Assembly: GCF_965641715.1 (NCBI RefSeq) | Contig: NZ_OZ282453.1 | Reading direction: 5' to 3' (one strand) | Source: Escherichia coli | GTDB taxonomy: Bacteria > Pseudomonadota > Gammaproteobacteria > Enterobacterales > Enterobacteriaceae | Length of the DNA: 64,000 bases | Shown: one piece after another, positions 2,268-59,265 of the stretch | Position numbering within the stretch: position 1 is the first letter of the stretch | How the letters are laid out: each line of letters starts with the position of its first letter | The notes under the pieces: model-generated | What the model was told of the DNA's origin: nothing | Databases searched by the model: none | The model's input: the letters and a program-made list of their open reading frames with translations, nothing else | Position numbers and translations under genes: made by a program

Positions 2268-2277
2268 GGTGATTTCC

Positions 2278-37790: not shown

Positions 37791-37791
37791 A

Positions 37792-37873
37792 TGCCGGATG
37801 CGACGCTTGCCGCGTCTTATCCGGCCTACGGGATTGCACATGTAGGGCGGATAAGGCTTCACGCAGCATCCGC
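37792..37873. repeat. REP elements between eutG and eutH
   Basis: gccggatgcgacgcttgccgcgtcttatccggcc and tgtagggcggataaggc palindromic units. Confidence 0.55.
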
Positions 37874-37905
37874 TAATAAATAACAACTAACAGGGAGTAA
37901 AGGCG

Positions 37906-39132: not shown

Positions 39133-40532
39133 ACACTCGCCAGCTACTGAGCGTCGGTATCGATATCGGCACCACCACCACCCAGGTGATTTTCTCCCAC
39201 CTGGAACTGGTTAACCGTGCGGCGGTGTCGCAGGTGCCGCGCTACGAATTCATCAAACGCGAAATTAGCTGGCAAAGCCCGGTGTTCTTTACCCCTGTCG
39301 ATAAACAGGGTGGTTTAAAAGAAGCGGAACTGAAATCGCTGATTTTAGAGCAATATCAGGCTGCGGGCATTGCGCCGGAAAGCGTTGATTCTGGTGCCAT
39401 CATCATCACCGGTGAAAGCGCGAAAACCCGCAATGCTCGCCCGGCGGTGATGGCGCTCTCTCAGTCGCTGGGCGATTTTGTCGTCGCCAGCGCCGGGCCG
39501 CACCTCGAATCCGTGATCGCCGGTCACGGTGCCGGGGCGCAAACCCTTTCTGAACAACGGCTGTGTCGGGTACTGAATATCGACATCGGCGGTGGCACCG
39601 CGAACTACGCCCTGTTCGATGCCGGAAAAATCAGCGGCACTGCCTGCCTCAACGTCGGTGGTCGCCTGCTGGAAACCGACAGCCAGGGGCGCGTGGTTTA
39701 CGCTCATAAACCGGGGCAGATGATTGTGGATGAGTGCTTCGGCGCAGGCACCGATGCCCGTTCGCTGACCGGCGCGCAGCTGGTGCAGGTTACCCGGCGG
39801 ATGGCAGAGCTGATTGTCGAAGTGATTGACGGAACGCTTTCGCCGCTCGCGCAGGCATTAATGCAAACCGGTTTGCTGCCCGCAGGTGTTACGCCCGAAA
39901 TCATTACGCTTTCTGGCGGCGTGGGCGAATGTTATCGCCACCAGCCCGCCGACCCGTTCTGTTTTGCCGATATTGGCCCGCTTCTGGCAACGGCGCTGCA
40001 TGACCATCCGCGCCTGCGTGAGATGAACGTGCAGTTTCCGGCGCAAACCGTGCGCGCCACGGTGATTGGTGCGGGTGCACATACCCTTTCGCTCTCTGGC
40101 AGCACAATCTGGCTGGAGGGCGTACAACTGCCGCTGCGCAATTTGCCGGTGGCGATCCCAATTGATGAAACGGATCTGGTGGGTGCCTGGCAACAGGCGC
40201 TGATTCAGCTGGATCTTGATCCCAAAACTGACGCGTACGTGCTGGCGCTTCCCGCCTCGCTGCCTGTGCGTTACGCCGCGGTACTGACGGTCATCAACGC
40301 GTTGGTCGATTTCGTCGCGCGTTTTCCGAATCCGAATCCCCTGCTGGTGGTGGCCGGGCAGGACTTTGGTAAAGCTCTGGGCATGTTGTTGCGCCCACAG
40401 CTACAACAACTCCCGTTGGCAGTCATTGACGAAGTGATTGTCCGCGCGGGGGACTATATCGACATTGGTACGCCTCTTTTTGGCGGATCGGTTGTGCCGG
40501 TGACGGTGAAATCACTCGCATTTCCTTCCTGA
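39129..40532 (+). CDS. eutA: ethanolamine ammonia-lyase reactivase EutA
   Basis: 467 aa MNTRQLLSVGIDIGTTTTQVIF...; stop TGA at 40530-40532 abuts the island. Confidence 0.85.
   Translation: MNTRQLLSVGIDIGTTTTQVIFSHLELVNRAAVSQVPRYEFIKREISWQSPVFFTPVDKQGGLKEAELKSLILEQYQAAGIAPESVDSGAIIITGESAKTRNARPAVMALSQSLGDFVVASAGPHLESVIAGHGAGAQTLSEQRLCRVLNIDIGGGTANYALFDAGKISGTACLNVGGRLLETDSQGRVVYAHKPGQMIVDECFGAGTDARSLTGAQLVQVTRRMAELIVEVIDGTLSPLAQALMQTGLLPAGVTPEIITLSGGVGECYRHQPADPFCFADIGPLLATALHDHPRLREMNVQFPAQTVRATVIGAGAHTLSLSGSTIWLEGVQLPLRNLPVAIPIDETDLVGAWQQALIQLDLDPKTDAYVLALPASLPVRYAAVLTVINALVDFVARFPNPNPLLVVAGQDFGKALGMLLRPQLQQLPLAVIDEVIVRAGDYIDIGTPLFGGSVVPVTVKSLAFPS
40525..40532. repeat. left junction direct repeat (att core candidate), overlaps the eutA stop codon
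   Basis: cttcctga, identical to 51725-51732; surrounding 20 bp are imperfectly similar. Confidence 0.5.
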
Positions 40533-40626
40533 ATACTGTAGTTATCAGGCGTGGCGCTGGGTGGCTGGGTGTTAGTGGGATTATATCCGGCTGTGTATCC
40601 GGTCGGGGTGATTGGTCTGTATAGCA

Positions 40627-40647
40627 GAAAACCCGGCGCGGGGCCGG
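40627..40647 (-). terminator. rho-independent terminator of the eutA-proximal cargo gene
   Basis: cccggc gcgg gccggg hairpin with a U tract on the minus-strand transcript; a near-identical copy is at 42316-42337. Confidence 0.6.
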
Positions 40648-40655
40648 GTGAACTA

Positions 40656-41216
40656 TCACTCAGGGAACAAGTTGATTTGAAGCAAACTGCCAATGTATTT
40701 ACCAGTGCTTTTAATTTTTCGCTTTGATGGCTTACACGAATTCAGGTTGACACCAGCCTGGCTAGATATTGGCTTGTATTGCCGCTCCGCCAGTACGATC
40801 AGGTCTGCCGCGTCTTTTAGCTTTCCATCGTTAGCCAGTTCCAATGCTCGATCCGCCATTTGCCCGCATTGTTGAATCAGCTTAAGTTGCGATACCTCCA
40901 GTCGCAATTGCTGGATTCGTTCTACCACTTTCGCCCTAATGCGCTTAGTTTCACGCATTCCCATTCTTAATGCCTGGTTGCCAGTAAGTGAGTAAACCTC
41001 TTTTTCTTTCCTGAAGTTTGCGGCTTTACCGTCAGCTTGGACGCGCATTTTATGCGCTTCCAAGAATTCGCCCTCCAATTCATCCCTGATCTTCGCGTTG
41101 AATCTGTCGTTCTTGAGTTCATTTAACCCTTCCGCCTTGCGGATCTGGTTGATTAACTCCAACAATTCATCACTGCGGATACGCCACTCGCTATCAACCT
41201 GTACCAAGTCAAACAT
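40656..41216 (-). CDS. hypothetical protein (island cargo); function unknown
   Basis: ORF track 40656..41309 begins at a TTG; the internal ATG at 41216 (MFDLVQVDSEWRIR...) has a GGGAG Shine-Dalgarno 6 nt upstream, giving 186 aa; basic C-terminus; own terminator. Confidence 0.55.
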   Translation of the reverse strand: MFDLVQVDSEWRIRSDELLELINQIRKAEGLNELKNDRFNAKIRDELEGEFLEAHKMRVQADGKAANFRKEKEVYSLTGNQALRMGMRETKRIRAKVVERIQQLRLEVSQLKLIQQCGQMADRALELANDGKLKDAADLIVLAERQYKPISSQAGVNLNSCKPSKRKIKSTGKYIGSLLQINLFPE

Positions 41217-41380
41217 GTTGTTGCTCCCGTTTTGCTGCCATAGGGCAACGGCTCGCCAGCCTTTATCACCTCCTTTAGTTGTTGCGATTCTTAACTGAAT
41301 GGTTATCAAAACGCTGCGTTAATATCATTGATATGTATCAAATTTGTTTTGTGACGCGACAATGCCTTGTGAATATCAAT

Positions 41381-41404
41381 AAAAAACCCAGCGCTATGGC
41401 TGGG
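41381..41404 (-). terminator. rho-independent terminator of the HTH cargo gene
   Basis: cccagc gctatg gctggg hairpin with a U tract on the minus-strand transcript. Confidence 0.55.
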
Positions 41405-41437
41405 CTTCGTTTAATGAGATGGGATTGAAAGCGGGTT

Positions 41438-42220
41438 TTATTTATCTCCCAGATTGTATTCCCAGTTGGGAAGTAAAGTTATCAGCTTGTCACCTTTCTT
41501 GCCTTTGCCGATCTGGTTGCCGTTCTCGTCTTTCTTGTGTGTGATTTCCTGGTCAACCTTAATCAATCCTCTCTCTTTGGCTTGCTCAATCAGTCGGTAG
41601 AATGCGCCGTTACTAATCGGCTTCCGGTTACCGTCGTTATCCATCGCAGTGATTTTCTGTTGCAGTCCGGCGTTATTGCCCAGGTATTCGCCACCTAACG
41701 CCGCCAGTACCTGACACAACATGCCGACACTGTATTTTTTCGGATTTGGGTTAATCCATTCTTTAGCTCCCATCTCTTTTTTGTCGTTGGGCGCTTGTTC
41801 TGCTGCTACTGCGTTCACCTTTTCATCTCCCATCTTGTTACCGCTTGCTGTGCGCTTAATTTCTTCCAGTTCTCTCTCAAGCTCACCTATACGTAATTCA
41901 CGCTCGATAATTACCCCGCGCAGCACATCATCATCACCGTGAGGGCTTGCCTGAATCCAGTTACCATTGGCGAGCGGTAGGAGGGCATAAATTCCGAACA
42001 GGTCACAAAGCGCGGCAAGTGTATTAAAATCAGGTTCCCGGCGTCCCTCCATCCAGTGGCTAACAGCGCCTTTTGTGACTGGTTCGCCTTTCTTGCTTTT
42101 AACACCCATGCGATCCAGTGCGGCGGCTATCTCTTCGCATTTAATGCCACGACCGCCAGCATAGCCCGCCGCTTTCGCGGCCCCTTTGAGGATGTCGTGA
42201 ATTTTCATTTCGTAACTCAT
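41438..42220 (-). CDS. XRE/Cro-C1-type helix-turn-helix domain protein (island cargo)
   Basis: ORF track 41438..42235; preferred start is the second ATG (MSYEMKIHD...) with a GGGAGA Shine-Dalgarno; HTH-like segment IKCEEIAAALDRMGVKSKKGEPVTKGAVSHWMEG; coiled-coil middle; Lys/Gly-rich C-terminus. Confidence 0.6.
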   Translation of the reverse strand: MSYEMKIHDILKGAAKAAGYAGGRGIKCEEIAAALDRMGVKSKKGEPVTKGAVSHWMEGRREPDFNTLAALCDLFGIYALLPLANGNWIQASPHGDDDVLRGVIIERELRIGELERELEEIKRTASGNKMGDEKVNAVAAEQAPNDKKEMGAKEWINPNPKKYSVGMLCQVLAALGGEYLGNNAGLQQKITAMDNDGNRKPISNGAFYRLIEQAKERGLIKVDQEITHKKDENGNQIGKGKKGDKLITLLPNWEYNLGDK

Positions 42221-42226
42221 AATTTT

Positions 42227-42257
42227 ATCTCCCATCTCATGAACTATGGTGGGAGAT
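42227..42257. promoter_or_regulatory. perfect 8-bp inverted repeat (atctccca N15 tgggagat) over the start region of the HTH gene
   Basis: Arms at 42227-42234 and 42250-42257; one arm contains the Shine-Dalgarno and first ATG of the minus-strand gene; tgggagat recurs at 42958-42965. Confidence 0.45.
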
Positions 42258-42315
42258 TAACACGGCGGGCCTGTGGCGGGTAAGTGTAACGGGAGAGAAT
42301 GTTGATTCAGGTCAC

Positions 42316-42337
42316 AAAAACCCGGCGCGGGGCCGGG
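42316..42337 (-). terminator. rho-independent terminator of the 158-aa cargo gene
   Basis: cccggc gcgg(g) gccggg hairpin with a U tract on the minus-strand transcript. Confidence 0.6.
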
Positions 42338-42359
42338 CTGTGTTAGTACGTCGTTGCTC

Positions 42360-42836
42360 TTAGTTCATGAGGAGATCTTTAAATTCGACGCCGTATTCAT
42401 GGGCAATGTCGCCTCTATAGTAGATGTTATCTTTCAGGATATATCCGACGTTTCTCAGGACGTGAGAACACTCTCTTACTGCTGCCTCTTTACCCCTTAA
42501 AACATCCTCCCCGCTAACTTCTTCGCCGCTGTACTTCACTGCGATGTTGTCTGCTGCACGCTCTGCTGCTTCCAGGCAATTAATCTTCACTTTTCCCCGA
42601 TTCTCCCAGGCAAAATCGCGGCCATAAATCCCCATTGCATCAACCATCTTTTGCGCAGTAGTGCGCTCATCCACCCATTCAGTGCGTTCGAACTTCTCGC
42701 CAGCAGCTACCCTTGCCGCCAGTTGTTCGTGTTGAGTCTGTACGGCCGCAGCCTCTTCTTCCCATTTGCCTTGCTCGTTGTATACGATGAAGCCAGTGAT
42801 GACTGCAGCGATTAGTAACTTGTCCAGAAAATTCAT
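42360..42836 (-). CDS. membrane-anchored hypothetical protein (island cargo)
   Basis: 158 aa; AGGAGG Shine-Dalgarno 5 nt upstream of the ATG; single N-terminal hydrophobic helix LLIAAVITGFIVY followed by a charged soluble domain. Confidence 0.6.
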   Translation of the reverse strand: MNFLDKLLIAAVITGFIVYNEQGKWEEEAAAVQTQHEQLAARVAAGEKFERTEWVDERTTAQKMVDAMGIYGRDFAWENRGKVKINCLEAAERAADNIAVKYSGEEVSGEDVLRGKEAAVRECSHVLRNVGYILKDNIYYRGDIAHEYGVEFKDLLMN

Positions 42837-43120
42837 AGCTTCCTCCTATCTGTTCAATTACCCGGCATCTCTTGCCGTTGAACGTATTAAACAAAATGCC
42901 AGTCAGGGATAAAGCGATCTGCGTCATAAAGTCCATCCCCCATCTCATTGATATTGATGGGAGATTGTTTAATTGGTCAGAAATTAAGCGTTTATGTGCG
43001 CTGCCGGGTATCCACCTCCTATCTGAAGATGGAAAGATGGGTGATATAATGTGATGGCAATTGGTGGATTGCGTGGTTTTTACAATGATAAGGGGCTGGC
43101 GTAATGCTGGCCCCTTTGTT

Positions 43121-43162
43121 TATCCGGTATCCGGTATCCGGTATAAGCGGGCGTGTATCCGG
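43121..43162. repeat. cluster of four tatccgg motifs (three tandem 7-mers plus one)
   Basis: tatccggtatccggtatccggtataagcgggcgtgtatccgg; related copies at 40584-40602 and, inverted, at 51558-51565. Confidence 0.5.
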
Positions 43163-43356
43163 TAGCGGGGATATGGGCGCGTGTACGTGAAATCTGGCAA
43201 ATTAGCAGGGTAATTGTGAGGGAATTTTTGCGTAGGAGCGTTTGTGGCTGGTAGCTCAAAATTGAGCTTTGCTTTTCATTCAATGACTTAGGTTAATTCT
43301 AGCAAAACGCTAGGATTGAATGTCCGCCAGTCTGCTTCCCCTAGCGTGGGATTTGG

Positions 43357-45723
43357 TCAACGTCTGCGCGGCTGCAAAATTCCTCCGGGTCGTTGTGATT
43401 CACGCTGCATCAGTCGCATCGCTGTGTTTTCTATGGTCTGCTGCAGCGCTTTTGAGTCTTCCTCTGTCCAGCCGTTGTTAGCCTGGATGTTGAACGTATT
43501 GTTCATCGTGATTCCGCCACCGCCTACCAGATCGCGGCCCGGTGTAACTCGTCCACCTTCACCCGGGATCATGTACTGTTTCCCGCCAGTGGATGTAAAT
43601 AGCTCCGGTACTCCGTGCTCCCCGACCCTATAAAGATTGCCACCGTTAACAGCCCCGCCGTTGTAACGAGCGCCAGCCAGTCCAAGCGTTTTGGCGGCAG
43701 CTACGCCAGTAGTAAGCCCGGTAAGTCCAGTGGCCCCAGCGCCGCCCATCGTGGCTACGTTAGCCAGGTATGCAGGAGTGGCCCACGCCGATCCTAATGC
43801 TGTAGCCTCTGCTAGTGCTTTAGCTGTTGCGGCTGCGTTTGCGGCTTCACCAATTAGCTGCTGTTTAACCCACTCAGCACCCATCTGGACAATGCCACCG
43901 ACCACAGAAGACAGGATCGTACTGCCAACGTTGGCAAGTGACTCTTGCAGCGATTGAGTACCGTTTATCAGTCCGGTAAATGCGCTGCCAGCGCCAGACG
44001 ATAACCCATCGACCATATTCCCGATGAGGCCATTTATATCGCTTTGTTTCTTCCACTGCTGCCACTGGAGATCCAGAACCCTTTGTTCATGTGCGATCTC
44101 TTCCTGGCGCAACTGCTCTTCGGTAGCCCCAAGATCTAGAAGCATTTGCTTGCGAACAGCCCATTCATTTTGGATCTTCTGTATTGGGTCAATCTGAGCT
44201 TTCTGCTTATCCTGCTCACTGACAAGACTGTCCCATTTCGCTTTCTGCTTGCGGATGGCTTCAGCTTCATCAATTGCTGCGAGTGTACTTGCTCGCTGTT
44301 TCGCGCTGATCAACCGTTTCTGCTCAGCCGCTTCCAGGTCTTCTACTGCTTTTTTCCGTTTATTGAGCGCCGCTAGTTCGGGATCGTATTTTTCCACCAA
44401 TGAAAGGCCGCTTGCTTCCTTACGTTCGCGTTCTCTTTGTGCCTGTTTGGCTGCCTGCTTAGCGGCGTTTTCTGCTTGTTTGGCTGCTCTTTCTTTCGCC
44501 CTGGTGTTCTCTTCTTCCTTGCGCTTATTCTCTTCTAACTCCTTGTTTTGTTCGCGTAATTTAACGATTTCCTCATGATGCGCCTTTGTCAGCTGGCCTT
44601 CTTTCAGTGCCCGATCTATATCAGCGTTTGCGTTGCCTTTTAGCTGTTCCTGTTTAACTTGCAGATGTTTAATCATCATTTCGCCAGTGGCAATCGCTGC
44701 CGCAGACGCTCCAGCATTCAGAGCTTCATTTAACGCTCTCTGACGTTCTTCTGCTGTTAATGCCTCGTTGCTGTATCGAAGTAGCGCATCAACGTATTTC
44801 TCCAGTTCTGCGCGGCCTGCCGCAGTTGCTGGTTCCATTGCTTTTAGGATGCTCAGAAGGCTTTGCGCTTCATAGGAAGACGGGTTTTTGCGGAACTGCG
44901 CCATAGCGTTATAAAGCGCCATAGCTTCACCCTCTGTGATTCTGTACTTAGCTCCCAGCCCTTCAATGACCGCTGATAACTGTTTGCCAAGCGCTGCACC
45001 GAATGCGCCTTCCTTGCTTAATTTGTTGAGCACTTCACTCAGTGAATTTCCTGACACGCCCAGCGCGTCGAGTTCTCTTGCTACCGTTCCCAGGTCGCCG
45101 CCTTTCATCCATCCTGCATTAGAAAATTCAGTGATAGCCCGGCCCGCTTCCCGCGTTTCTTCCTGGAGTGTTTTTAGCGCCCGCACGGCCTGCTCTTTCA
45201 TTACGGCGGCGGCAATGGCGTTGTTCTGTGTGGCTTCGTAATATGAATCACTGAAAGCGTTAACGCCCTGGGTGGATTTGCCGATCACGGCGTCGATTGA
45301 TGCTAATGCCTCCTTCATCCTTTCAGCGCTATCCGTTGCGTCGTCCATGCTGTCCGTTAGGCTGTTGGCAATCGCCCCGCCAATAGCCATCACCGCCCCC
45401 ATGACCGCACCGCCAGTACCGAAGGCAGCGGCAAGTTGTGCACCCTGCACAGCGAACGCCTGGAGCGCATTACCGCCCATCTGCAATTGAGTGGCAAGGT
45501 CTGCGATCTGGTATGATGCGTTACGGATTGCCGGGGAAAGGTTGGTTTTGACTGCGGCAGACGTTTTGGTCATCTGCGTGTTCAGTTTTTTGACGCCACT
45601 GTCAGCGCGTTTTGCGCCGCGTTCTATACTGTCAAAAGCCTGGTCCGCTTCTTGTTGTGCTGCCAGGAGTTTACCAGTACGGGCGTCGACCTCATAGTAT
45701 ATGGTCCCAAGATTCCCACTCAT
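43357..45723 (-). CDS. phage tail tape-measure protein, lambda gpH-like
   Basis: 788 aa; N-terminal Gly/Ala-rich hydrophobic segment (GGAVMGAVMAIGGAI); long Ala/Lys/Glu/Gln-rich coiled-coil centre; C-terminal Gly-rich region with NLYR and NNTFNIQ motifs resembling the lambda H C-terminus as recalled; no Walker A motif. Confidence 0.7.
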   Translation of the reverse strand: MSGNLGTIYYEVDARTGKLLAAQQEADQAFDSIERGAKRADSGVKKLNTQMTKTSAAVKTNLSPAIRNASYQIADLATQLQMGGNALQAFAVQGAQLAAAFGTGGAVMGAVMAIGGAIANSLTDSMDDATDSAERMKEALASIDAVIGKSTQGVNAFSDSYYEATQNNAIAAAVMKEQAVRALKTLQEETREAGRAITEFSNAGWMKGGDLGTVARELDALGVSGNSLSEVLNKLSKEGAFGAALGKQLSAVIEGLGAKYRITEGEAMALYNAMAQFRKNPSSYEAQSLLSILKAMEPATAAGRAELEKYVDALLRYSNEALTAEERQRALNEALNAGASAAAIATGEMMIKHLQVKQEQLKGNANADIDRALKEGQLTKAHHEEIVKLREQNKELEENKRKEEENTRAKERAAKQAENAAKQAAKQAQRERERKEASGLSLVEKYDPELAALNKRKKAVEDLEAAEQKRLISAKQRASTLAAIDEAEAIRKQKAKWDSLVSEQDKQKAQIDPIQKIQNEWAVRKQMLLDLGATEEQLRQEEIAHEQRVLDLQWQQWKKQSDINGLIGNMVDGLSSGAGSAFTGLINGTQSLQESLANVGSTILSSVVGGIVQMGAEWVKQQLIGEAANAAATAKALAEATALGSAWATPAYLANVATMGGAGATGLTGLTTGVAAAKTLGLAGARYNGGAVNGGNLYRVGEHGVPELFTSTGGKQYMIPGEGGRVTPGRDLVGGGGITMNNTFNIQANNGWTEEDSKALQQTIENTAMRLMQRESQRPGGILQPRRR

Positions 45724-46012
45724 AATATCTTTATCCGCGTTGTGCGGACACCTCCGATTATTCTTTACTCTAATAATTTCACAATGAAACAGTTTATTGC
45801 CGCTTCAGTGGCTTCGTGTTCCGGTTTGCTTCGATCAATCACAAAAAATACAGCTTAATAGAATCAATGGCTTATAAAGTTGTATTAGCTATGTTTCTTC
45901 GTCCGTGCCACTGAAAACCCAGTTTTTCCAATGGAATCAATACTGATATGTATCCATACTGTTTTTCACATAATGTACGTTATGCGCACTACGGGAAACG
46001 TACTGAATTTAT

Positions 46013-46243
46013 TTACTGGTCGCCGTTCAGTTCATGCAGAGTCTGTTCTGGCAATGAATCCAGCCAGTTTTCTGCATCCTCCCTGTAACACTCCAGGATG
46101 CAACGGTTTGTGAAGTTGATGAAAGCGGTCAGTGATTCTGCTTCGTCGTTCCTGTGCGTTCTCCTGGCGTGCTTGCGTAGTCGTTTCGCGTCTGCCAGTT
46201 GGTCATTGAGTATCTTCAGTCTGTCGGCAATATCATCGTTCAT
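46013..46243 (-). CDS. hypothetical small protein
   Basis: 76 aa; GGGAGA Shine-Dalgarno 6 nt upstream of the ATG. Confidence 0.45.
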   Translation of the reverse strand: MNDDIADRLKILNDQLADAKRLRKHARRTHRNDEAESLTAFINFTNRCILECYREDAENWLDSLPEQTLHELNGDQ

Positions 46244-46430
46244 GTCGTCTCTCCCTCGCGCGCGCGTCGTACTTGTCCGAAAATTACCCCCATAAAAGCG
46301 CCCCTCATATAGTGCAAAATCCCGGCTGACGCGGATCTCAGTGGGTTTTAGCAGTGAAAACTGACATCAAAAACGGCTCGCTAAGGTCCGCTAAGTATCC
46401 GCTATCGTTCGCTAACCCCCCGCTAACCTA

Positions 46431-46796
46431 TTAGATATCGCATCCAACGCTATTGAGCTGGCTATGTATATCGGCGCGAATTAACTTCAGGCGTTTACAA
46501 AATTCGCGTTCTTCCGAATTAAGCTCGCGGCCACCTTGTTTCGAGGCAATGAGCTTGTTGATGGTGGAAAGCGAATATTCACTCCATATACGAAGCATTT
46601 GTCGCTTCATTGGTTGCTCGCTCAATGGTGAGTTTTTCAGGTCTGACACGCGCTCTGCGACGGTTCTTGCGATGCCTTGTACCACTCGTAGTGCCAACAT
46701 GATGATTTTCTCCGGACTTGTGCTAATATAGTTCCCGAACATTGTTTCGAGACTGCTTATCCTGTTTGTCTTGTCCGATTTGTTCATTGGTCGCAT
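46431..46796 (-). CDS. hypothetical protein
   Basis: 121-aa ORF in the same orientation as, and closely spaced with, the upstream 180-aa ORF. Confidence 0.45.
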   Translation of the reverse strand: MRPMNKSDKTNRISSLETMFGNYISTSPEKIIMLALRVVQGIARTVAERVSDLKNSPLSEQPMKRQMLRIWSEYSLSTINKLIASKQGGRELNSEEREFCKRLKLIRADIHSQLNSVGCDI

Positions 46797-46838
46797 TGTT
46801 AAGTCAGCCGGGGTAATTCCCGGCTTTCTTTTATCCGA

Positions 46839-47381
46839 TCAGTACCGAATCCCTATCGCATTGAATACGCGTTTCCGTTGCTCAGCTTCAGGATCGGCGG
46901 CCATTTCTGGTTCTGGCTCCGGCATAGACGGGGCGGCATCAAAATGCTCAATTTCACGACCGAAATACGAGTTCAGGTCAATACCTGCCGAACTATCCAC
47001 TCCATCAAAATAGCGACGCTGTTCCTCGGTGAGACAGCTACCCAGACGTTCCTCAACCTGCGCCATAAACTCAGCATCCGGTGAGAAGTACTCATCCGGA
47101 GTCGGAGCACCGCTCTGTTTGTGCATCTCCATTTTCTCTGCGTTCGTTTTCAGCCCGGCAATGCGTTTCTCCAGTCCGGCGGCTTTAATAGCGTCAGCAA
47201 CGATTTGTGGGATCTGCGGTTTAATTATTTCGATAACTTCATTGCTGATTAATTTAAACTGGGCCATACGGATCGCTTTAATCTGCTTATTTAACAGTGC
47301 GCGTTCCCCTTCGTTGGCGGTTTTATCACGCTGTGCTACCAGTTCATCGCCTTTGTTTGTCAGTACATCAAATGCGTCCAT
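46839..47381 (-). CDS. hypothetical protein
   Basis: 180 aa; strong GGAGGAGG Shine-Dalgarno 7 nt upstream; acidic Pro/Glu-rich C-terminal tail; 17 nt downstream of the 108-aa ORF. Confidence 0.55.
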   Translation of the reverse strand: MDAFDVLTNKGDELVAQRDKTANEGERALLNKQIKAIRMAQFKLISNEVIEIIKPQIPQIVADAIKAAGLEKRIAGLKTNAEKMEMHKQSGAPTPDEYFSPDAEFMAQVEERLGSCLTEEQRRYFDGVDSSAGIDLNSYFGREIEHFDAAPSMPEPEPEMAADPEAEQRKRVFNAIGIRY

Positions 47382-47398
47382 TGTCTTTCCTCCTCCGA

Positions 47399-47725
47399 TT
47401 ATTTAAAAGTGCTTATTGACACGCCGAAACGACGACTTAATTCAAAAAGGAGTCGCGCCTTTGCAGTGCCTTCCATGTCTTCCGGCATTTCAGACTGAAG
47501 TTTATCAGCTACTTCATCAACAAGTGGCCGAACCGTTTCCACGAACTTGTCCGCAATATAATCAGCAGAACGCATCACTTTTTCCTGGAATTCCTCACGG
47601 CGTACCTGGGCGGCTGATTTAGGGGCTGTCGTGCGCTGAAAATAACTGTCTAATGAATGCATGGCATCTGCTCCTTTTACTTTGATTGCTGTTATTTCTT
47701 TAATTGTGTTTGCTTTGATTTTCAT
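47399..47725 (-). CDS. hypothetical protein
   Basis: 108-aa ORF starting 76 nt downstream of the AlpA-like gene. Confidence 0.5.
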   Translation of the reverse strand: MKIKANTIKEITAIKVKGADAMHSLDSYFQRTTAPKSAAQVRREEFQEKVMRSADYIADKFVETVRPLVDEVADKLQSEMPEDMEGTAKARLLFELSRRFGVSISTFK

Positions 47726-47801
47726 GCTGCCTATTCCTTCAGAAATTGCGGTAGTTTGCTTTTTAAATCAATAAGTTATTTGATAATCTCAGTAGCTGTT
47801 T

Positions 47802-47993
47802 TCATTGGTGGCGAGCGCCTTTGTTTTTATAGAATTCCAAAATCTCAGATCGGATAAACTTAATTCTTGAGCCAATCGGACTGACCGGGACGGGCCAGCC
47901 TTTAATCTTGTTCATCCACCGGAATATTGTCCGACGGGTAACGCCGAATAAAGCTGCTACCTCGTTAACCGTCATTAATTCGCTATCATTCAT
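47802..47993 (-). CDS. excisionase / AlpA-family DNA-binding protein
   Basis: 63 aa; HTH MTVNEVAALFGVTRRTIFRWM typical of excisionase-family domains; GAGGTGA Shine-Dalgarno. Confidence 0.7.
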   Translation of the reverse strand: MNDSELMTVNEVAALFGVTRRTIFRWMNKIKGWPVPVSPIGSRIKFIRSEILEFYKNKGARHQ

Positions 47994-48003
47994 GTTCTCA
48001 CCT

Positions 48004-48046
48004 CAAAAAGTAGCGGTGAGGAAAATATGGAGAAAACCCTCACCGC
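48004..48046 (-). promoter_or_regulatory. terminator-like hairpin in the leader of the AlpA-like gene (candidate attenuator)
   Basis: Minus-strand RNA reads GCGGUGAGG, 16-nt loop, CCUCACCGC, UACUUUUU, then GAGGUGAGAAC AUG; the 3' arm could alternatively pair with the Shine-Dalgarno. Confidence 0.45.
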
Positions 48047-48220
48047 GCCCTGAATGAAATTAAAGACCAACATTACTGTTGATACTTATTATTATATTCC
48101 TCCTGTCCCTGTTTCACATCTTTTACCATATAGTGAAAGGGGATATTCTGTAATGTTTACAAAACTTTTAATTAGCAAAAAATAATTGCGCATCTCACGT
48201 AATGCAGGGATAATATTACT

Positions 48221-48306
48221 CAAGGGCTGGTTGCCCTTACTCAAAATGTGATCTATAACTACAACGATCTATTTCACTTCCCCGCTTTCTCCGGCGGGAT
48301 TTTTTT
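48221..48306 (+). ncRNA. candidate small RNA (~86 nt), divergent from the AlpA-like operon
   Basis: Promoter-like TTGCGC (48186-48191), 17-bp spacer, GATAAT (48209-48214); internal hairpin agggctggttgccct; terminator cccgc tttctccg gcggg plus T7 at 48281-48306; no ORF. Confidence 0.4.
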
Positions 48307-49115
48307 GCCTGCAATCTGGCACCATTGCGCACATTAAAATTAGATGCCATTTAAAAGCGATATAACGCGTTCTGCCGGGCTTAATTTTGGCTATCCACTT
48401 GGAAGGGTAAGCCTGTTTTGATTCGTCTGGCGTGGAATGGTGCGGCGGTAATATCAGATCTCAGCGTTCTGCGTGGTGGGATGAAATAGCCTGGCAGGAT
48501 TTGCGTGTGGTTTGCTCTCCCAAAAAATGGGGTAATGGCGCTGGCTGGATGGCAGGACTCCGCGCTGATTACTGGATGGCTGAAAATTTAATGAAATCGC
48601 ATCAATTTTAATGCGTCTAAATCGCTCTGTGGCGACGTGAAGTTTTCAGGTAAGCAAGTGTAGCTGTGTGGTGTGTTCATCGCGTTACTGGCACCATTCC
48701 GTTCGAATTTGGCGCTATCAGGATGGTTTGCGGTGGTCGGCGGCGGGGATAAACTTGCTTGAGTGGTCACCTCAGCCTGCTGTGCGTCGTGTGATGGTAC
48801 TGTCTGCACCTGGCTATACGCTGCTTTGCTGCTGTTTCCTGTCTGGTCTGTATACGCGATAAAACCCATCGGCTTTACAGTGAGTGAGTTTTTTGCGCTT
48901 TGCTTTCCATTCGGTTTGCTTACTGCTGCTGTGTGTCTGTGCGGTAGCTCAGAAAGCTGTCGATGATAACCATCACTGCCAGACCGTCTTTTGAGCTGGC
49001 GATTGCTCGAAGTCTTCCGAAGGTCCGCTGGGCTTGTTGCTTGTTTGTGTTCTTTTAAAATGCGCGCCTCTTACTTTCTCTTAAAAAGAAAAAAGGAATA
49101 TACAGATCTCATACT

Positions 49116-49275
49116 ATGTGTGTCCCAAATGTCACACGTCATGGCCTGACCTGTATCCCAAATGTCACACGTCACCCTCTGACCTGTATCCCAAATGTCA
49201 CACGTACCTGTGTCCCAAATGTCACACGTCTATTGTTAATTAATTGTTGACCTGTGTCTCAAATGTCACACGTCT
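49116..49275. repeat. iteron array: five direct repeats of about 22 bp
   Basis: Copies start at 49116, 49149, 49182, 49206, 49250 (spacings 33, 33, 24, 44 bp); core cccaaatgtcacacgt; AT-rich ttgttaattaattgttga between copies 4 and 5. Confidence 0.7.
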
Positions 49276-49292
49276 GTTGATGGTTTAAGTAA

Positions 49293-49319
49293 TAAAAAGG
49301 GCCACCATTTTAGGTGACC
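49293..49319 (-). terminator. rho-independent terminator of the wHTH gene
   Basis: gggccacc atttta ggtgaccc hairpin (one G-U pair) with a U tract on the minus-strand transcript. Confidence 0.5.
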
Positions 49320-49338
49320 CATTGATGCGTTTTAGTCG

Positions 49339-50103
49339 TTATCTTGCGTTCTCGACCTGAAAAAGCATTCTGTATTTTCTTGCGTGCTGACCAATAACAT
49401 ATTCCCCGTATGGCTCAATGAGTCCTAACTCAACCAGGATTTTCATCTGGCGAATTACGGTGCGGCGATTCATGCCCCATTCATCAGCTATTTTTGCCTG
49501 GCAAACTTCAGATACATAAGATCCATCATTCTGCTTTCTTGCTGCTGATGCAATGCTGGATAATACGCTCCAGGCTGTAGCTTTAGCTTTATTCTCGCAA
49601 CCACTTCTGACAAATGCCTTACGTGCCGCACCCAAACAGACATAACTGCAATAAATTCCTTTTTCTTCCGTTTGGTATTGTGTCTCTTTATCCTGCATGG
49701 CTTCCGGTTCTTCCGGCGCTTCCTGCTGTGGTGCTGTCTGCGAAGTTTTAGCGGCCATACTGCGTAGCTCGTTCACGATATCAGTAGCTGATTTCTTCTC
49801 GCTTTTAGTTTCCTGCGTGACTGATAAATACTCACCTTGTAACGCCAGGAAGTCAGCGCGGGCGTTTGCCTGGCTTTGTTCTGGTGATTCAGGTTCTGCA
49901 TCGGCAGGTGATGAAATCGGTGATACACGCGCCCAGCCTGTTTTGGCGTTGCATTCCCAGCGATAACCATTAAAGCGGATATCATTCAGGCCATCATCAA
50001 TGGCGCTCCGTACTTCTTCCGGGATCGCGTCGATTTTCTGAAGGCTGTGTTTACCGAGTGATTCGCCTTGCCGTGGGGCGTAGGCGGTTGGTAAAATATT
50101 CAT
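49339..50103 (-). CDS. winged-helix DNA-binding protein, putative replication initiator or repressor
   Basis: 254 aa; AAGGAGA Shine-Dalgarno; acidic low-complexity middle; C-terminal HTH-like EVCQAKIADEWGMNRRTVIRQMKILVELGLIE; iteron array immediately downstream. Confidence 0.5.
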   Translation of the reverse strand: MNILPTAYAPRQGESLGKHSLQKIDAIPEEVRSAIDDGLNDIRFNGYRWECNAKTGWARVSPISSPADAEPESPEQSQANARADFLALQGEYLSVTQETKSEKKSATDIVNELRSMAAKTSQTAPQQEAPEEPEAMQDKETQYQTEEKGIYCSYVCLGAARKAFVRSGCENKAKATAWSVLSSIASAARKQNDGSYVSEVCQAKIADEWGMNRRTVIRQMKILVELGLIEPYGEYVIGQHARKYRMLFQVENAR

Positions 50104-50315
50104 GTGGGATTTCTCCTTTTTACTTGTTTCCCATATCGCCCGGATTGGTTAGCGGCCTTCCGGGCTTTTTGTTGCGTTGATCCTATTTTCGATCCCCGGA
50201 TTTTTTATTACAAACTTGGCTTAATCATTGATTTTATTGGTATAGCTGTATAAAAGGATAACAGGATAAAAGGGTGATAGATTGTGTAACCTGTTAACCT
50301 TTTATACCAGTAAGG

Positions 50316-50342
50316 CGAAAGAAAAGCCGGACGAATCCGGCC
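50316..50342 (-). terminator. rho-independent terminator after the integrase gene
   Basis: gccgga cgaa tccggc hairpin with a U-rich tract, 8 nt past the integrase stop. Confidence 0.5.
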
Positions 50343-50349
50343 TTATAGT

Positions 50350-51555
50350 TCACGGCTCCAGCGGATTACCGCCACCAGCCAATATCTGGTCGATGGCGTC
50401 GCTGTAGTCCTGCATCATGGCCCGCCGTTGCTTCAGATAGGCCGCCTGGTTATAAACGCCGCGCACACCTTTCGGAACGTGGGCCAGTTGGATTTCGATC
50501 CAGTCTGGTGAGTATCTGCCGTACTCGTTAAGTGCGGTTGAAAAGGTGGTTCGCCAGCCGTGACCAGTGGCTATCGACTTGTATCCGATACGCTCCAGGG
50601 CTTTAAGGATGGCACTGGCTGAAAGTGGCTTATCCATGAATCGACCAGGGAACACAAAAGCACTGTATCCGCTGCGGGTAAACTGGTCCTGTAATAGCTC
50701 GACCGCCTGCCGGGATAGCGGGACCACATGCGGGCGGCGGGCCTTCATGACTTCAGCGGGTAGGGTGATGGTTGCCGATTCCAGATCTACCCACTCCCAG
50801 CGCATTAAACGCAGTTCTGCGGTCCTTAGGGCGCTTAATATAAGCAAACGTATTGCCGTCTGAATCTGAACGCTCCCGGCTCTCTCAAGGGCTTTGTAGA
50901 AGGCCGGGATTTCGTTAATTTGTATCCATGCGTTATGGCCTGGGCGTCGGGCTTTCAATGCCGTGTCCAGATCTGCAACCGGATTTCGGTTAACCAGTTC
51001 AGTGATAACGGCAAATTTGAAGATTTCCCCTATACGCTGCCGTAATTTTCGGGCCTGTTCCGGCGCGGTGCGCTCTTTCTTCTGAAGCAATGCCAGCACG
51101 TCACGGGCCGTTATATCGACAATCGACCGCTTGCCAAGTACCGGATAAACATCTTTCTCCAGTGCCGATCTAACTTGTTTCGTGTAAGACTCAGACCAAC
51201 CGCTCACTCTGGTAGCAAACCAGTCTTCCGCTACCGTCTTAAAACTTGCCGCCATGTTGAGCGCATCAATGGCTTTCTCCTTGCGCGCTTCTTCCATTGG
51301 GTCAATTCCCTGGGCGATGAGTAAACGGCTCTCTGTGGCGCGTTTACGTGCTTCCTTCAAGGTAATCAGCGGATATACCCCAATAGCCTGTAACCGCTCT
51401 TTCTTGTCTATCCAGTACCGGAATCGCCAGTATTTGCTGCCATTGGGATGTACCAGCAAGAACAGGCCAGGTGTCTGTGAATCGGTGAGTTTGTAGGGCT
51501 TGTCCTTCGGCTGGGCGGCCTCTATGCCCTTTGCTGTCAGTGGTGTCTTGCTCAA
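50350..51555 (-). CDS. P4-type tyrosine integrase (site-specific recombinase), intZ-like
   Basis: 401 aa; N-terminal arm-binding domain (PYKLTDSQTPGLFLLVHPNGSKYWRFRY); C-terminal catalytic region with the HGWRTTFSTALNE and RGVYNQAAY motifs. Confidence 0.85.
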   Translation of the reverse strand: MSKTPLTAKGIEAAQPKDKPYKLTDSQTPGLFLLVHPNGSKYWRFRYWIDKKERLQAIGVYPLITLKEARKRATESRLLIAQGIDPMEEARKEKAIDALNMAASFKTVAEDWFATRVSGWSESYTKQVRSALEKDVYPVLGKRSIVDITARDVLALLQKKERTAPEQARKLRQRIGEIFKFAVITELVNRNPVADLDTALKARRPGHNAWIQINEIPAFYKALERAGSVQIQTAIRLLILSALRTAELRLMRWEWVDLESATITLPAEVMKARRPHVVPLSRQAVELLQDQFTRSGYSAFVFPGRFMDKPLSASAILKALERIGYKSIATGHGWRTTFSTALNEYGRYSPDWIEIQLAHVPKGVRGVYNQAAYLKQRRAMMQDYSDAIDQILAGGGNPLEP

Positions 51556-51724
51556 AACCGGATACCTCGATCTAACGACTCGATAACCCCGCTCATGTAT
51601 CCGTCGCGTTCGGTTGCGTTCGGCAGGATAAGTAACGGGCGTATTAAGTGGAACACCTTACAGGACAAGGGATAACGATGAAATAGAATTGTTCGAATGC
51701 TGTGAAAAATGTTACTCATCACTT

Positions 51725-51732
51725 CTTCCTGA
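51725..51732. repeat. right junction direct repeat (att core candidate), immediately 5' of the eutB ribosome-binding site
   Basis: cttcctga, identical to 40525-40532; followed by gggaacgactt ATG (eutB). Confidence 0.5.
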
Positions 51733-51743
51733 GGGAACGACTT

Positions 51744-53105: not shown

Positions 53106-53125
53106 TGACGCGGAGATAACACATC

Positions 53126-54013
53126 ATGGATCAAAAACAGATTGAAGAAATTGTACGCAGCGTGATGGCGTCAATGGGACAAGTGGCCCCCGCGCCGTCA
53201 GAAGCAAAGTGCGCCACCACCAACTGTGCGGCACCGGTGACCTCGGAAAGCTGCGCGCTGGATTTAGGTTCTGCGGAAGCAAAAGCGTGGATTGGTGTTG
53301 AAAACCCACATCGTGCGGATGTGTTAACAGAACTGCGTCGCAGCACCGTGGCCCGCGTTTGTACCGGTCGTGCCGGTCCGCGTCCGCGTACCCAGGCGCT
53401 GCTGCGTTTCCTGGCCGATCACTCTCGTTCGAAAGATACCGTACTTAAAGAAGTGCCGGAAGAGTGGGTGAAAGCGCAGGGCTTGCTGGAAGTACGCTCT
53501 GAAATTAGCGACAAAAATCTCTACCTGACTCGCCCGGATATGGGCCGCCGCCTGTGTGCAGAAGCTGTTGAAGCGCTGAAAGCGCAGTGTGTTGCCAATC
53601 CGGACGTGCAGGTCGTTATTTCTGATGGCCTGTCAACTGATGCCATCACTGTGAACTACGAAGAGATCCTGCCACCGCTGATGGCGGGCCTGAAACAGGC
53701 CGGGCTGAAAGTCGGTACACCATTCTTTGTTCGTTATGGTCGCGTGAAGATTGAAGATCAGATCGGTGAGATCCTCGGCGCGAAAGTGGTGATCCTGCTG
53801 GTGGGGGAACGTCCGGGGTTAGGGCAGTCAGAAAGCCTCTCCTGCTACGCCGTTTACTCGCCGCGTATGGCGACCACCGTTGAGGCCGATCGCACCTGCA
53901 TCTCTAACATTCACCAGGGCGGCACGCCGCCGGTTGAAGCCGCAGCCGTCATTGTGGATTTGGCGAAACGTATGCTGGAGCAGAAAGCATCCGGCATCAA
54001 CATGACCCGATAA
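53126..54013 (+). CDS. eutC: ethanolamine ammonia-lyase small subunit
   Basis: 295 aa [19 protein letters not shown]... Confidence 0.9.
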
Positions 54014-54022
54014 GGAGGCATC

Positions 54023-54682: not shown

Positions 54683-54694
54683 TGGAGGTTGCCG

Positions 54695-59146: not shown

Positions 59147-59167
59147 CGCAGAGGTGCGCTTTGTTTA

Positions 59168-59265
59168 TGCCGGATGCGGCGTGAACGCCTTATCCGGCCT
59201 ACAAAACATCGAAAATTCAATATATTGCAGGAGAAAGTAGGCCTGATAAGCGTAGCGCATCAGGC
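59168..59265. repeat. REP elements between yfeZ and yfeY
   Basis: gccggatgcggcgtgaacgccttatccggcc and aggcctgataagcgtagcgcatcaggc palindromic units. Confidence 0.55.

Follow-up and report, generated by a model that had tools for sequence, protein, structure and literature searches.

The eutA-eutB interval of the Escherichia coli K-12 ethanolamine operon holds CPZ-55, an element classically described as a cryptic prophage. It is annotated at NC_000913.3 2558691-2565480 (6,790 bp), where it abuts the eutA stop and starts 11 nt from the eutB ATG. An 8-bp duplication at the CPZ-55 site and a prevalence of about 8% were published earlier (PMC6379469), and in K-12 the insertion abolishes both eutB induction and growth on ethanolamine (bioRxiv 10.1101/2024.05.13.593892). 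CPZ-55 excision occurs in fewer than 1 in 100,000 K-12 cells (PMC3105296), and mobilome sequencing of stressed K-12 cells revealed no CPZ-55 activity. Among phage satellites, the Vibrio cholerae PLEs have a tape measure gene of their own and assemble chimeric tails, and predicted tmp genes have also been reported in other satellites (PMC11838301), as well as in EPIPs.

Here, we describe an 11,200-bp island at the same position in a 64,000-nucleotide stretch of E. coli DNA (the window, whose coordinates are used throughout). It differs from CPZ-55 in most of its DNA, and it carries an intact tail tape measure gene as its only structural gene.

Results and Discussion

The Island Occupies the CPZ-55 Site

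The eut operon of the window is split between eutA (ORF 39129-40532, with a TGA stop at 40530-40532) and eutB (ATG at 51744, 453 aa in the gene call of the identical public contig L009). The initial annotation had recognized this split, the flanking direct repeat, the P4-type integrase at the eutB-proximal end, and the identity of the site with the position of CPZ-55; each of these points held. The features of the two ends are as follows.

40525..40532, unstranded: left core copy CTTCCTGA (attL crossover region), including the eutA stop; same junction in 7 of 7 complete-genome islands compared
40533..40650, unstranded: conserved left arm; contains a GTATCCGG motif (40595-40602) and, on the minus strand, a terminator-like hairpin (40631-40649)
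50350..51555, minus: IntZ-type tyrosine integrase (P4/DUF4102 type), 401 aa, 92% identical to K-12 IntZ
51558..51565, minus: GTATCCGG motif in inverted orientation, 3 bp before the start of int; candidate for an arm-type or regulatory site
51725..51732, unstranded: right core copy CTTCCTGA (attR), 11 nt 5' of the eutB ATG

Because an 8-bp repeat alone is weak evidence, the boundaries were tested independently by joining window positions 40233-40532 to 51733-52032, which yields 600 bp of eut flank. The rejoined flanks gave a single uninterrupted match, with an identity of at least 99%, in 4,965 of 5,426 complete E. coli genomes. Therefore, about 8.5% of complete E. coli genomes have an interrupted site. 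Both junctions are base-for-base alike in six complete-genome islands (..CCTTCCTGA/ATAC.. and ..TTCTTCCTGA/GGGAACGAC.., with the slash at the junction), and a seventh, L001, shows the left junction only, its right end having been lost to deletion. When the last 300 bp of eutA plus the left arm are aligned, similarity to K-12 and to two other islands extends to about 40648-40650, with 95-97% identity across all 417 bp. Similarity upstream of the core consists of scattered matches, at about 14 of 22 positions as judged by eye.

The initial annotation had also stated that both genes remain intact. This is correct for the coding sequences but not for function in K-12, where eutB induction is lost. 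Through the insertion, eutBCLK is cut off from the promoter of the operon; the junctions are observed here, and the polarity is experimental in K-12 only.

Gene Content

The remaining features of the island are listed from its eutA-proximal end.

40656..41309, minus: orf217, variable left-end cargo position; 186 aa (40656-41216) in the identical public contig
41035..41061, plus: 27-bp palindromic element GCTTGGACGCGCATTTTATGCGCTTCC; mEp021-type phages have the identical sequence as a non-coding element, about 130 bp upstream of terS
41438..42235, minus: orf265, YffS-like HTH regulator, 66-70% amino acid identity to K-12 YffS
42360..42836, minus: orf158, YffR-like protein, 34% identity
43090..43172, unstranded: strong terminator-like hairpin (43090-43116), then a GTATCCGG cluster (43127, 43134, 43155)
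43357..45723, minus: tail tape measure protein, 788 aa, intact
46013..46243, minus: orf76, small helical protein present in some family members
46431..46796, minus: orf121, YffM-like core protein; probable true product 89 aa (46431-46700)
46839..47381, minus: orf180, highly conserved core protein, 95-100% identical in 4 of 6 sister islands compared
47399..47725, minus: orf108, conserved small protein
47802..47993, minus: orf63, excisionase/AlpA-type HTH protein
49119..49273, unstranded: five 21-bp iterons TGTRTCYCAAATGTCACACGT, putative replication origin, directly 3' of orf254
49339..50103, minus: orf254, winged-helix DNA-binding protein and putative iteron-binding replication initiator, at the position of K-12 YffL
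50248..50307, unstranded: inverted repeat (21-nt arms) in the int-orf254 interval, which may be an operator or terminator

The integrase has the arm-binding, middle, and catalytic domains of a P4-type (DUF4102) tyrosine integrase (Arm-DNA-bind_3, Phage_int_M, and Phage_integrase in precomputed Pfam hits of an identical protein; phrog_1, E 2e-66). A string search alone supplied the candidate catalytic motifs R244, HGWR at 332, LAH at 357, and VY at 367. Across other islands, the integrase is 94-100% identical in amino acid sequence. The 50,697 phage records searched contained no IntZ orthologue and no phage integrase more than 43% identical. Assignment of orf63 as excisionase-type comes from Pfam HTH_17 (PF12728) and phrog_66 (E 1.7e-9), with TIGR01764 below its cut-off.

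The tape measure assignment draws on a full-length profile match (phrog_1538, E 8e-112, residues 1-774), a TMP_2 domain (Pfam, E 1e-5), and an intact ORF. PHROG and NCBIfam scans of the island detected no capsid, portal, large terminase, tail tube, or lysis gene, and neither a tail assembly chaperone nor a capsid-size factor nor a cos site could be identified in it. PADLOC matched none of 10 island proteins (the main ORFs except the integrase and orf63) to a known defence system. Weak Ant/anti-repressor-like matches were obtained for orf217 (phrog_8235 and phrog_1726, E about 1e-5), which has homologues in islands L007, L020, and L021. The structural model of orf121, the candidate considered for a tail assembly chaperone, is a generic three-helix bundle, and its named homologues all come from Escherichia (54 clusters). 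The GTATCCGG cluster at 43127-43155 resembles the left arm, and a module boundary may lie there.

The iteron search returned five matches against 0.01 expected, and the predicted fold of orf254 is a generic winged helix. We regard orf254 as a putative Rep and the iterons as its putative origin, based on the adjacency of gene and repeats together with weak HMM hits. No primase or helicase domain was found in the island, and no DnaA box, the iteron region included. At least two specificities of this replication-like module exist: the island pairs orf254 with five 21-bp repeats, and K-12 pairs yffL with four repeats of 23 bp. Such modules have been exchanged between island variants.

A Diverged Sibling of CPZ-55

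The initial annotation had described CPZ-55 as shorter and without an annotated tape measure gene; both statements are accurate. It had also named a near-identical full-length alignment to CPZ-55 as the result that would remove any novelty. Instead, only 17% of the island DNA aligned to K-12, at 83.8% identity, and none of the 5,426 complete genomes holds at least 80% of the island. Four proteins are common to both elements: IntZ (92% amino acid identity), YffS (66-70%), YffM (45%), and YffR (34%). The idea that the insert simply is the described K-12 element, with the size difference an annotation artefact, can draw on the shared site, 8-bp repeat, and integrase family. It is nonetheless refuted by the low coverage and identity, the small and diverged set of shared proteins, the tape measure gene that K-12 lacks, and the differences in iterons and winged-helix protein.

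By sequence, then, the island is a diverged mosaic relative of CPZ-55, with the same att core, an IntZ orthologue, and YffS, YffR, and YffM homologues. It is a member of a CPZ-55 family of compact (about 7-15 kb) integrative elements of E. coli, as it has both the insertion between the eutA stop and the eutB ribosome-binding site with the CTTCCTGA repeat and the IntZ-orthologous integrase at the eutB-proximal end. The earlier suggestion of a different or less-decayed occupant is therefore borne out in part: the island is distinct from CPZ-55, but it is not unrelated, and its content does not support a less-decayed prophage, since genes for capsid, portal, large terminase, tail tube, and lysis are all missing and all readable islands measure about 6.8-15 kb.

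Fourteen islands at the eutA/eutB site, all with readable extent, span about 6.8-14.8 kb; twelve were sized junction to junction and two from annotation, with L001 lacking its right end. Only part of one more island, L017, was seen. None of the 14 is a full prophage, and capsid, portal, TerL, tail tube, and lysis genes are absent from all of them. Compact size without a full virion and lysis gene set is what is expected of a phage satellite.

Links to mEpimmI Phages

Several features tie the family to the mEpimmI phages (mEp021, mEp013, and relatives; PMC11893012). A search of 50,697 phage records found the 27-bp element in mEp021, mEp013, mEp515, and mEp044 and in no others. The mEp021 TerS is matched by K-12 YffO and by the TerS-like protein of L006, and mEpimmI phages are the only coliphages with a YffO match. 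The Neck1 protein of L007 is 47% identical to mEp013_81, and the HNH protein of sister islands weakly matches that of mEp013. Judged by homology, the phage-like genes of the family all encode "interface" proteins of virion assembly or packaging, each with an mEpimmI homologue. The closest phage tape measures are likewise of the mEp021 type, with 52-60% identity over the aligned 40-54% of the protein and about 80% identity in the C-terminal 150 aa.

Within the family, the hypervariable gene is that of the tape measure (28-73% identity between islands, one near-identical pair excepted), and at 80% coverage or more this allele is absent from all 5,426 complete genomes.

Possible Nature of the Element

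We tentatively prefer, with slightly less than even confidence, to view the island as a satellite-like element, or a recently active descendant of one, over a decaying prophage. We infer a life cycle of five steps; what is shown here is the gene inventory, repeats, homologies, and selection signatures. A temperate siphophage of the mEp021 type (mEpimmI) would infect the cell or be induced there, and IntZ together with the excisionase-type orf63 would excise the element. Replication would then be fired by the winged-helix orf254 at the five adjacent iterons. The helper's HNH-associated terminase would package the element, a step suggested because sister islands carry TerS-like, HNH, and Neck1 homologues and this island carries the 27-bp terS-upstream element. 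Finally, the 788-aa tape measure would take the place of the helper protein in tails, as in the Vibrio cholerae PLEs. Insertion at the 8-bp core CTTCCTGA, across the eutA stop codon, is the work of IntZ.

The island may instead be an inert or host-domesticated remnant of an ancient mEpimmI-related prophage, a reading that we consider possible though somewhat doubtful. Deletions would have left HNH, TerS-like, Neck1, and tape measure genes, the element would have spread by vertical descent and eut-flank recombination, and its genes would be kept by host benefit or hitch-hiking. Across sister islands, these four genes are indeed collinear with a phage late operon, an arrangement that deletion remnants would show as well. 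The family is found in one species and at one site only, a distribution that homologous recombination in the eut flanks could produce without site-specific mobility. Excision in K-12 is rare, with no stress-induced activity seen, and many variants contain IS elements, deletions, and pseudogenes. Metagenome and viral contig collections yielded no attP (excised-circle) junction, IMG/VR viral contigs contained no relatives of IntZ or orf180, and all 10 metagenome right ends found were integrated at eutB, four of these contigs having the eutA junction too. Against this, neither the islands examined nor 60 E. coli genomes sampled from the 488 with a match contained a relative of full or intermediate length, and the phage records contained no IntZ orthologue. 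Purifying selection is strong (omega 0.07 for int, 0.13 for the tape measure, and 0.20 for orf265 against yffS), and the tape measure ORF is intact in 6 of 6 islands compared (2.2-2.4 kb, 726-790 aa). Integrase alleles differ by a dS of 0.5-0.9, far above the divergence of the eut flanks, whose rejoined 600 bp are at least 99% identical in about 4,800 genomes; the compact form is therefore old and not a product of recent decay. The swapping of winged-helix-plus-iteron modules between variants also argues against a remnant, and a relic would hardly be expected to vary most in its tape measure gene, although host domestication could account for the purifying selection.

Anti-phage defence could also be the main role of the island, with the tape measure, perhaps along with small helical proteins, poisoning or titrating mEpimmI-type tail assembly, other defence cargo at variable positions, and mobility secondary. 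An AIPR/Abi-alpha gene and a YafO toxin do occupy variable positions of sister islands, a hypervariable tape measure would fit an arms race, and interference with tail assembly aimed at tape measure proteins is known from Tab (PMC10884400) and from Rta of PLE11. We consider this role improbable, since PADLOC matched none of the ten proteins and the iteron module and excisionase-type gene would be left unexplained. To our knowledge, there is no case of a full-length tape measure acting itself as a defence effector.

The satellite-like reading has a broader form, which we put forward as rather unlikely: CPZ-55 would be a degenerate member of an unrecognized E. coli satellite family that parasitizes temperate mEpimmI siphophages, replicates through a winged-helix protein and iterons, and places its own hypervariable tape measure in helper tails. 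Tape measures encoded by satellites were recognized only in 2025, in PLEs and EPIPs, and an E. coli family would open the question in the best genetic system, with candidate helper phages that were isolated on K-12 and a TMP-bearing island in ATCC 8739. The present analysis also gives two unexplained K-12 genes testable roles, yffL as an iteron-binding initiator and yffO as a homologue of the mEp021 small terminase. In about 8.5% of E. coli genomes, the element interrupts eut, an operon tied to gut fitness; since the K-12 element abolishes ethanolamine use, its presence or precise excision switches a metabolic trait off or on, and precise excision of a satellite would restore the operon as well. 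If the island is only a remnant, it represents ordinary strain-to-strain variation at a known hotspot.

Comparison with Known Systems

CPZ-55 shares with the island the insertion point, the 8-bp core, an IntZ 92% identical in protein sequence, YffS, YffR, and YffM homologues, and the gene order of int, winged-helix gene plus iterons, small genes, and HTH regulator, all antisense to eut. The two differ in length (6,790 versus 11,200 bp), in the 788-aa tape measure that K-12 lacks, and in most of their DNA, of which only 17% aligns. Their winged-helix proteins are 27% identical over 86 aa, their iteron sequences also differ, and the island has neither YffO (TerS-like) nor YffP.

The mEpimmI phages provide the closest phage homologues of the island tape measure, homologues of the TerS-like, Neck1, and HNH proteins of sister islands, and the identical 27-bp element. 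Unlike the island, these phages are complete and 53-55 kb long; they encode an unrelated integrase (25% identity to IntZ) and have none of the small core genes of the island.

P4-like satellites have the same integrase type with a DUF4102 arm-binding domain, and the closest phage integrases are 41-43% identical; in contrast, PHROG and NCBIfam scans found no homologues of psu, delta, sid, alpha-primase, or epsilon in the island. Gram-negative PICIs of the EcCICFT073 type resemble it in size (about 10-15 kb), in having the integrase at one end and genes in the same direction, in the AlpA/excisionase-type HTH protein, and, for some family members, in TerS-like and HNH genes linked to cos-type phages. 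However, no primase-replicase and no Rpp or Ppi-like gene was recognized in the island, which has a winged-helix protein followed by five iterons and an integration site inside an operon, and its full-length tape measure departs from the PICI definition of having no structural genes.

The Vibrio cholerae PLEs, whose function is experimental whereas a like role for the island is proposed, have a lytic myovirus as helper in place of the temperate siphophages proposed here, and kinship in sequence with the island would not be expected; no TAC or baseplate hub homologue was found in the island, and PHROGs recognized no TAC. Like the island, the PLEs are small integrative elements without capsid or tail tube genes that carry their own full-length tape measure, diverged from that of one phage group.

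The island is a precise insertion between eutA and eutB

The eutA reading frame (39129-40532) ends with a TGA at 40530-40532, eutB starts with the ATG at 51744, and an 11,200-bp island lies between them. The octamer CTTCCTGA is found at both 40525-40532 and 51725-51732, which agrees with the flanking direct repeat reported in the initial annotation. Because an 8-bp repeat by itself could arise by chance, the boundaries were tested independently with a synthetic empty site, in which the 300 bp before 40533 were joined to the 300 bp after 51732. This sequence was uninterrupted at at least 99% identity in 4,965 of 5,426 complete E. coli genomes. Therefore, the 11,200 bp between the repeats were inserted at precisely these boundaries into an E. 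coli host, and the proposed insertion between the eutA stop codon and eutB is established by both the junctions and the empty-site match. Both junctions were base-for-base identical in six complete-genome islands, eutB was joined to all 10 of the right ends found in metagenome contigs, and the island of strain USMARC-49610 (L001) kept only its left junction. An earlier publication already describes the 8-bp duplication and puts the prevalence at about 8% (PMC6379469).

The remainder of the window is collinear with K-12 (hyfD to murP, 96-98% identity), and a public contig (GCA_965259455.1 CBDGWI010000013.1) matches positions 37001-55000 at 100% identity. The only other breaks in collinearity were short indels in the yfeZ-yfeW region, at 59149-59289 and about 60949-60975. 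We considered host divergence as the source of low identity at the eutA end of island alignments and rejected it, since the rejoined flanks are at least 99% identical to other E. coli; a divergent island arm within the alignments is the cause.

Two further observations concern the site in other sequences. Several metagenome contigs (L020, L022, and L024) carry an island with only 47-55 bp of eut flank at one or both ends, probably marking a break in the assembly graph of a sample that contains both occupied and empty sites. In K-12 substr. AG100 (NZ_LN832404.1 2561267-2561956), eutA and eutB are joined with about 90 extra bases and without CPZ-55, for which an engineered scar and excision are the candidates.

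The insertion leaves the coding sequences of eutA and eutB untouched, as had been noted from the sequence, and places 11.2 kb of antisense DNA between eutBCLK and the operon promoter. The plus strand of the island also contains several terminator-like hairpins (43090-43116, 46806-46825, and 48281-48298). The CPZ-55 insertion leaves K-12 BW25113 unable to induce eutB, form microcompartments, or grow on ethanolamine (bioRxiv 10.1101/2024.05.13.593892), and by analogy we would expect the same loss of eut function in the window strain. Precise excision would restore the operon.

A mosaic member of the CPZ-55 family

CPZ-55 is annotated in K-12 at NC_000913.3 2558691-2565480, where it abuts the eutA stop codon and ends 11 nt before the eutB ATG, exactly like the window island. 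The two insertions thus share the same position, and CPZ-55 is indeed the shorter of the two, at 6,790 bp against 11,200 bp. We rejected the possibility that the island is K-12 CPZ-55 itself: the alignment, which had been named as the refuting check, returned no near-identical full-length match, K-12 aligning to 17% of the island at 83.8% identity. Only four proteins are common to both, namely IntZ (92%), YffS (66-70%), YffR (34%), and YffM (45%). The suggestion of a different occupant holds in that the island differs from K-12 CPZ-55, but it is still a member of the CPZ-55 family, and a less-decayed prophage is not supported.

At least 80% of the island was found in none of the complete E. 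coli genomes. USMARC-49610 has an island that matches the right half at 98.5% identity, and strain 2018-18.25PC has one that matches part of the left half at 99%; most of the tape measure gene matches neither. By these alignments, the island is a mosaic member of a diverse CPZ-55 family. The exact tape measure protein occurs on six public contigs and no complete genome contains at least 80% of its gene; both the mosaic and the allele are rare.

All island genes lie on the minus strand, antisense to eut. Listed from the eutB end, the features are as follows.

Features of the window island
50350-51555, minus: IntZ integrase, with Arm-DNA-bind_3, Phage_int_M, and Phage_integrase domains
49339-50103, minus: orf254, winged-helix protein (predicted model with a confident C-terminal winged helix)
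49119-49273: five 21-bp iterons TGTRTCYCAAATGTCACACGT, after a terminator-like hairpin directly 3' of orf254
Between the iterons and orf63: mostly non-coding stretch of about 1.1 kb
Between the non-coding stretch and orf108, minus: orf63, excisionase/AlpA-type HTH_17 protein
Between orf63 and the tape measure gene, minus: orf108, orf180, orf121, and orf76, conserved small helical proteins
43357-45723, minus: tape measure protein, 788 aa (phrog_1538, E 8e-112, full length; Pfam TMP_2)
Next, minus: orf158, YffR-like
Next, minus: orf265, YffS-like HTH regulator
Last gene, at the eutA end, minus: orf217, weak anti-repressor-like matches

Scans of the island genes found no capsid, portal, TerL, tail tube, or lysis genes. 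The NCBIfam scan gave sub-threshold excisionase-HTH matches on orf63 only, the PADLOC scan of ten island proteins (the main ORFs apart from the integrase and orf63) gave zero matches, and Rfam returned no match at E up to 1. Neither orf254 nor orf265 gave a useful match in PDB sequence searches. The orf121 model was confident (pLDDT 93) and depicts a generic three-helix bundle, with no chaperone-specific match.

Several non-coding elements were also observed. The spacer between int and orf254 holds an inverted repeat (50248-50307) whose 21-nt arms are 90% complementary and separated by 18 nt; it may be an operator or a terminator. On the plus strand, a promoter-like site (48156-48183) precedes a terminator-like hairpin with a T-run (48281-48298), and together these elements (48156-48306) could yield a putative RNA of about 100 nt that runs antisense to the orf63 leader; for the interval 48188-48306, the fold was not significant (z -1.47) and Rfam gave no match. 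Finally, all five copies of GTATCCGG in the 64-kb window fall inside the island (40595, 43127, 43134, 43155, and 51558), against 1.0 expected. One is near each island end. The other three are clustered just 3' of the tape measure gene, where the sequence is similar to the left arm and a strong terminator-like hairpin adjoins them. The five copies may serve as arm sites for the integrase or mark a module boundary.

Sixteen islands at the eutA/eutB site were examined, and the 12 that were measured junction to junction ranged from 6,790 to 14,815 bp. The measured islands included those of the window and K-12 (L003), L001 (without its right end), L002, L006, L007, and L008, as well as the metagenome islands L020, L021, L023, and L024; L016 and L018 are about 10 kb by annotation, and L017 and L022 were in partial view only. 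The constant backbone consists of int, a winged-helix gene, an HTH or HNH gene, small genes, usually a tape measure gene, and a YffS-like regulator. Variable cargo occupies fixed positions.

Cargo of sister islands
L002, 7735-10242: AIPR/Abi-alpha gene (phrog_1841, E 4e-59), with a 232-aa partner, flanked by the orf76 homologue and the tape measure gene
L017 (O157:H7 strain), 17227-17742: YafO toxin gene, near the int end
Sister islands: TerS-like and HNH genes
L007: Neck1 gene
L016 (strain 200088), 2024-5877: IS1-linked block with racemase, antiporter, and decarboxylase genes

The L016 variant is common, occurring in many genomes (H17-H30), and has lost the left half, including the tape measure gene; its replacement block comprises IS1, a murI-like glutamate racemase, a gadC-like antiporter, and a truncated PLP-dependent decarboxylase. 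In USMARC-49610, a deletion (L001 11670-13590) fuses a truncated intZ to a truncated eutB, immobilising that island and shortening the eutB coding sequence; both fused genes carry pseudogene annotations.

A winged-helix gene and iterons form a conserved module

The five iteron matches in the window compare with 0.01 expected. In K-12, yffL sits in the position of orf254 and has its own iterons, four tandem 23-bp copies of GGTGGGTCAAAAGTTGCCG immediately after the gene (L003 5951-6046, in the yffL-yffM gap) rather than the five 21-bp copies of the window; L002 and L006 repeat the K-12 type. Thus, the winged-helix gene and its iterons are a conserved module with different specificities. We found no published description of the yffL iterons. 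Classically, an arrangement of this kind marks an initiator with its origin, and orf254 is accordingly placed as a putative initiator. Its homologues carry PF13730 or PF13545. Several observations keep the role putative: the HMM matches are weak, the fold is generic, and the island contains no DnaA box, hence none near the iterons, and no primase or helicase. All source names given for orf254 homologues were Escherichia or an unclassified Enterobacteriaceae isolate.

The tape measure gene is intact, hypervariable, and related to mEpimmI phages

Genes of the family are under purifying selection, with omega values of 0.07 for int, 0.13 for the tape measure gene (window vs L006), and 0.20 for the yffS-like gene. 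Integrase alleles differ by a dS of 0.5-0.9, whereas the eut flanks are at least 99% identical; therefore, the islands have diverged over a long period as already compact elements. The tape measure gene is intact in all six islands compared (726-790 codons) and is their most variable gene, with 28-73% identity between islands apart from one near-identical pair, while its neighbours are 94-100% identical between the same islands. Its termini are conserved and its centre is mosaic, and some alleles resemble a phage tape measure more closely than they resemble one another.

The best phage matches of the island tape measure are the mEpimmI phages (mEp021-type temperate siphophages), with identity of 52-60% where the proteins align, rising to about 80% over the C-terminal 150 residues. 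Other family proteins point to the same phages. K-12 YffO (L003 7112-7528) matches the mEp021 small terminase (27% over 115 aa, E 2e-11), and its only coliphage matches in the collection are mEpimmI, the remainder being Pseudomonas and Ralstonia phages. The TerS-like protein of L006 is homologous to the same terminase (E 8e-14), the L007 Neck1 protein is 47% identical to mEp013_81, and island HNH proteins weakly match that of mEp013. In addition, a 27-bp palindrome inside orf217 (41035-41061) is 100% identical to a non-coding phage element about 130 bp upstream of terS, found among 50,697 phage records only in mEp021, mEp013, mEp515, and mEp044. Similarity ends abruptly beyond about 34 bp, and by our reading of the sequences, stop codons bracket the phage element in the orf217 frame, so the match is not coding homology. 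The element may serve in packaging or in regulation, or it may be a scar left by recombination.

A simple remnant of an mEp021-type prophage integrated at this site was rejected as the sole explanation: identity between the mEpimmI integrase and IntZ is only 25%, and mEp013 lacks all of the island's small core genes. Among 60 genomes sampled from the 488 E. coli genomes with a match, none had a full-length prophage at the site.

Nature of the element

The island is a site-specifically inserted, IntZ-bearing, compact CPZ-55-family element whose genes are under purifying selection, with an iteron module, an excisionase-type gene, and an intact, hypervariable, mEpimmI-related tape measure gene. 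From these features, we tentatively infer, at a little short of an even chance, that the island acts, or acted until recently, as a satellite of mEpimmI-like phages and provides the tape measure itself. The main rival, which we regard as rather less probable though substantial, is an ancient remnant, inert or domesticated, that moves by flank recombination. In its favour, the HNH, TerS-like, Neck1, and tape measure genes found across the family are collinear with a phage late operon, and the family is confined to one species and one site. Excision in K-12 occurs in fewer than 1 in 100,000 cells (PMC3105296), and no stress-induced activity was seen. The attP junction, CATCACTTCTTCCTGA joined to ATAC(G/T)GTAGTTATCAGG, had no exact match in metagenome or viral contigs of public collections, and no relative of IntZ or of orf180 turned up in scans of IMG/VR. 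Such a remnant would also have to accommodate the low omega values and the tape measure reading frames kept open in every island compared. A defence island, with the tape measure acting as a poison of tail assembly, is a considerably less likely possibility.

Among 50,697 phage records, no integrase was more than 43% identical to IntZ, and a scan of one genome per species, which detects close relatives only, gave nothing but distant integrases (31-40% identical) from unrelated taxa.

The insertion site, 8-bp repeat, IntZ, and variant islands were already known or visible in public annotation. Judged against the searchable literature, the family-level picture, the iteron modules (including that of K-12 yffL), and the several independent mEpimmI links are new; we found no paper pairing CPZ-55 with "satellite" or phage-inducible chromosomal islands with eutA. 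If the element is a satellite, its tape measure would be supplied to an mEpimmI-like helper phage. There is precedent for this strategy: the PLEs of V. cholerae were recently shown to supply their own tape measure (PMC11838301), and other satellites have also been noted to carry tmp genes (PMC11838301; EPIP preprint).
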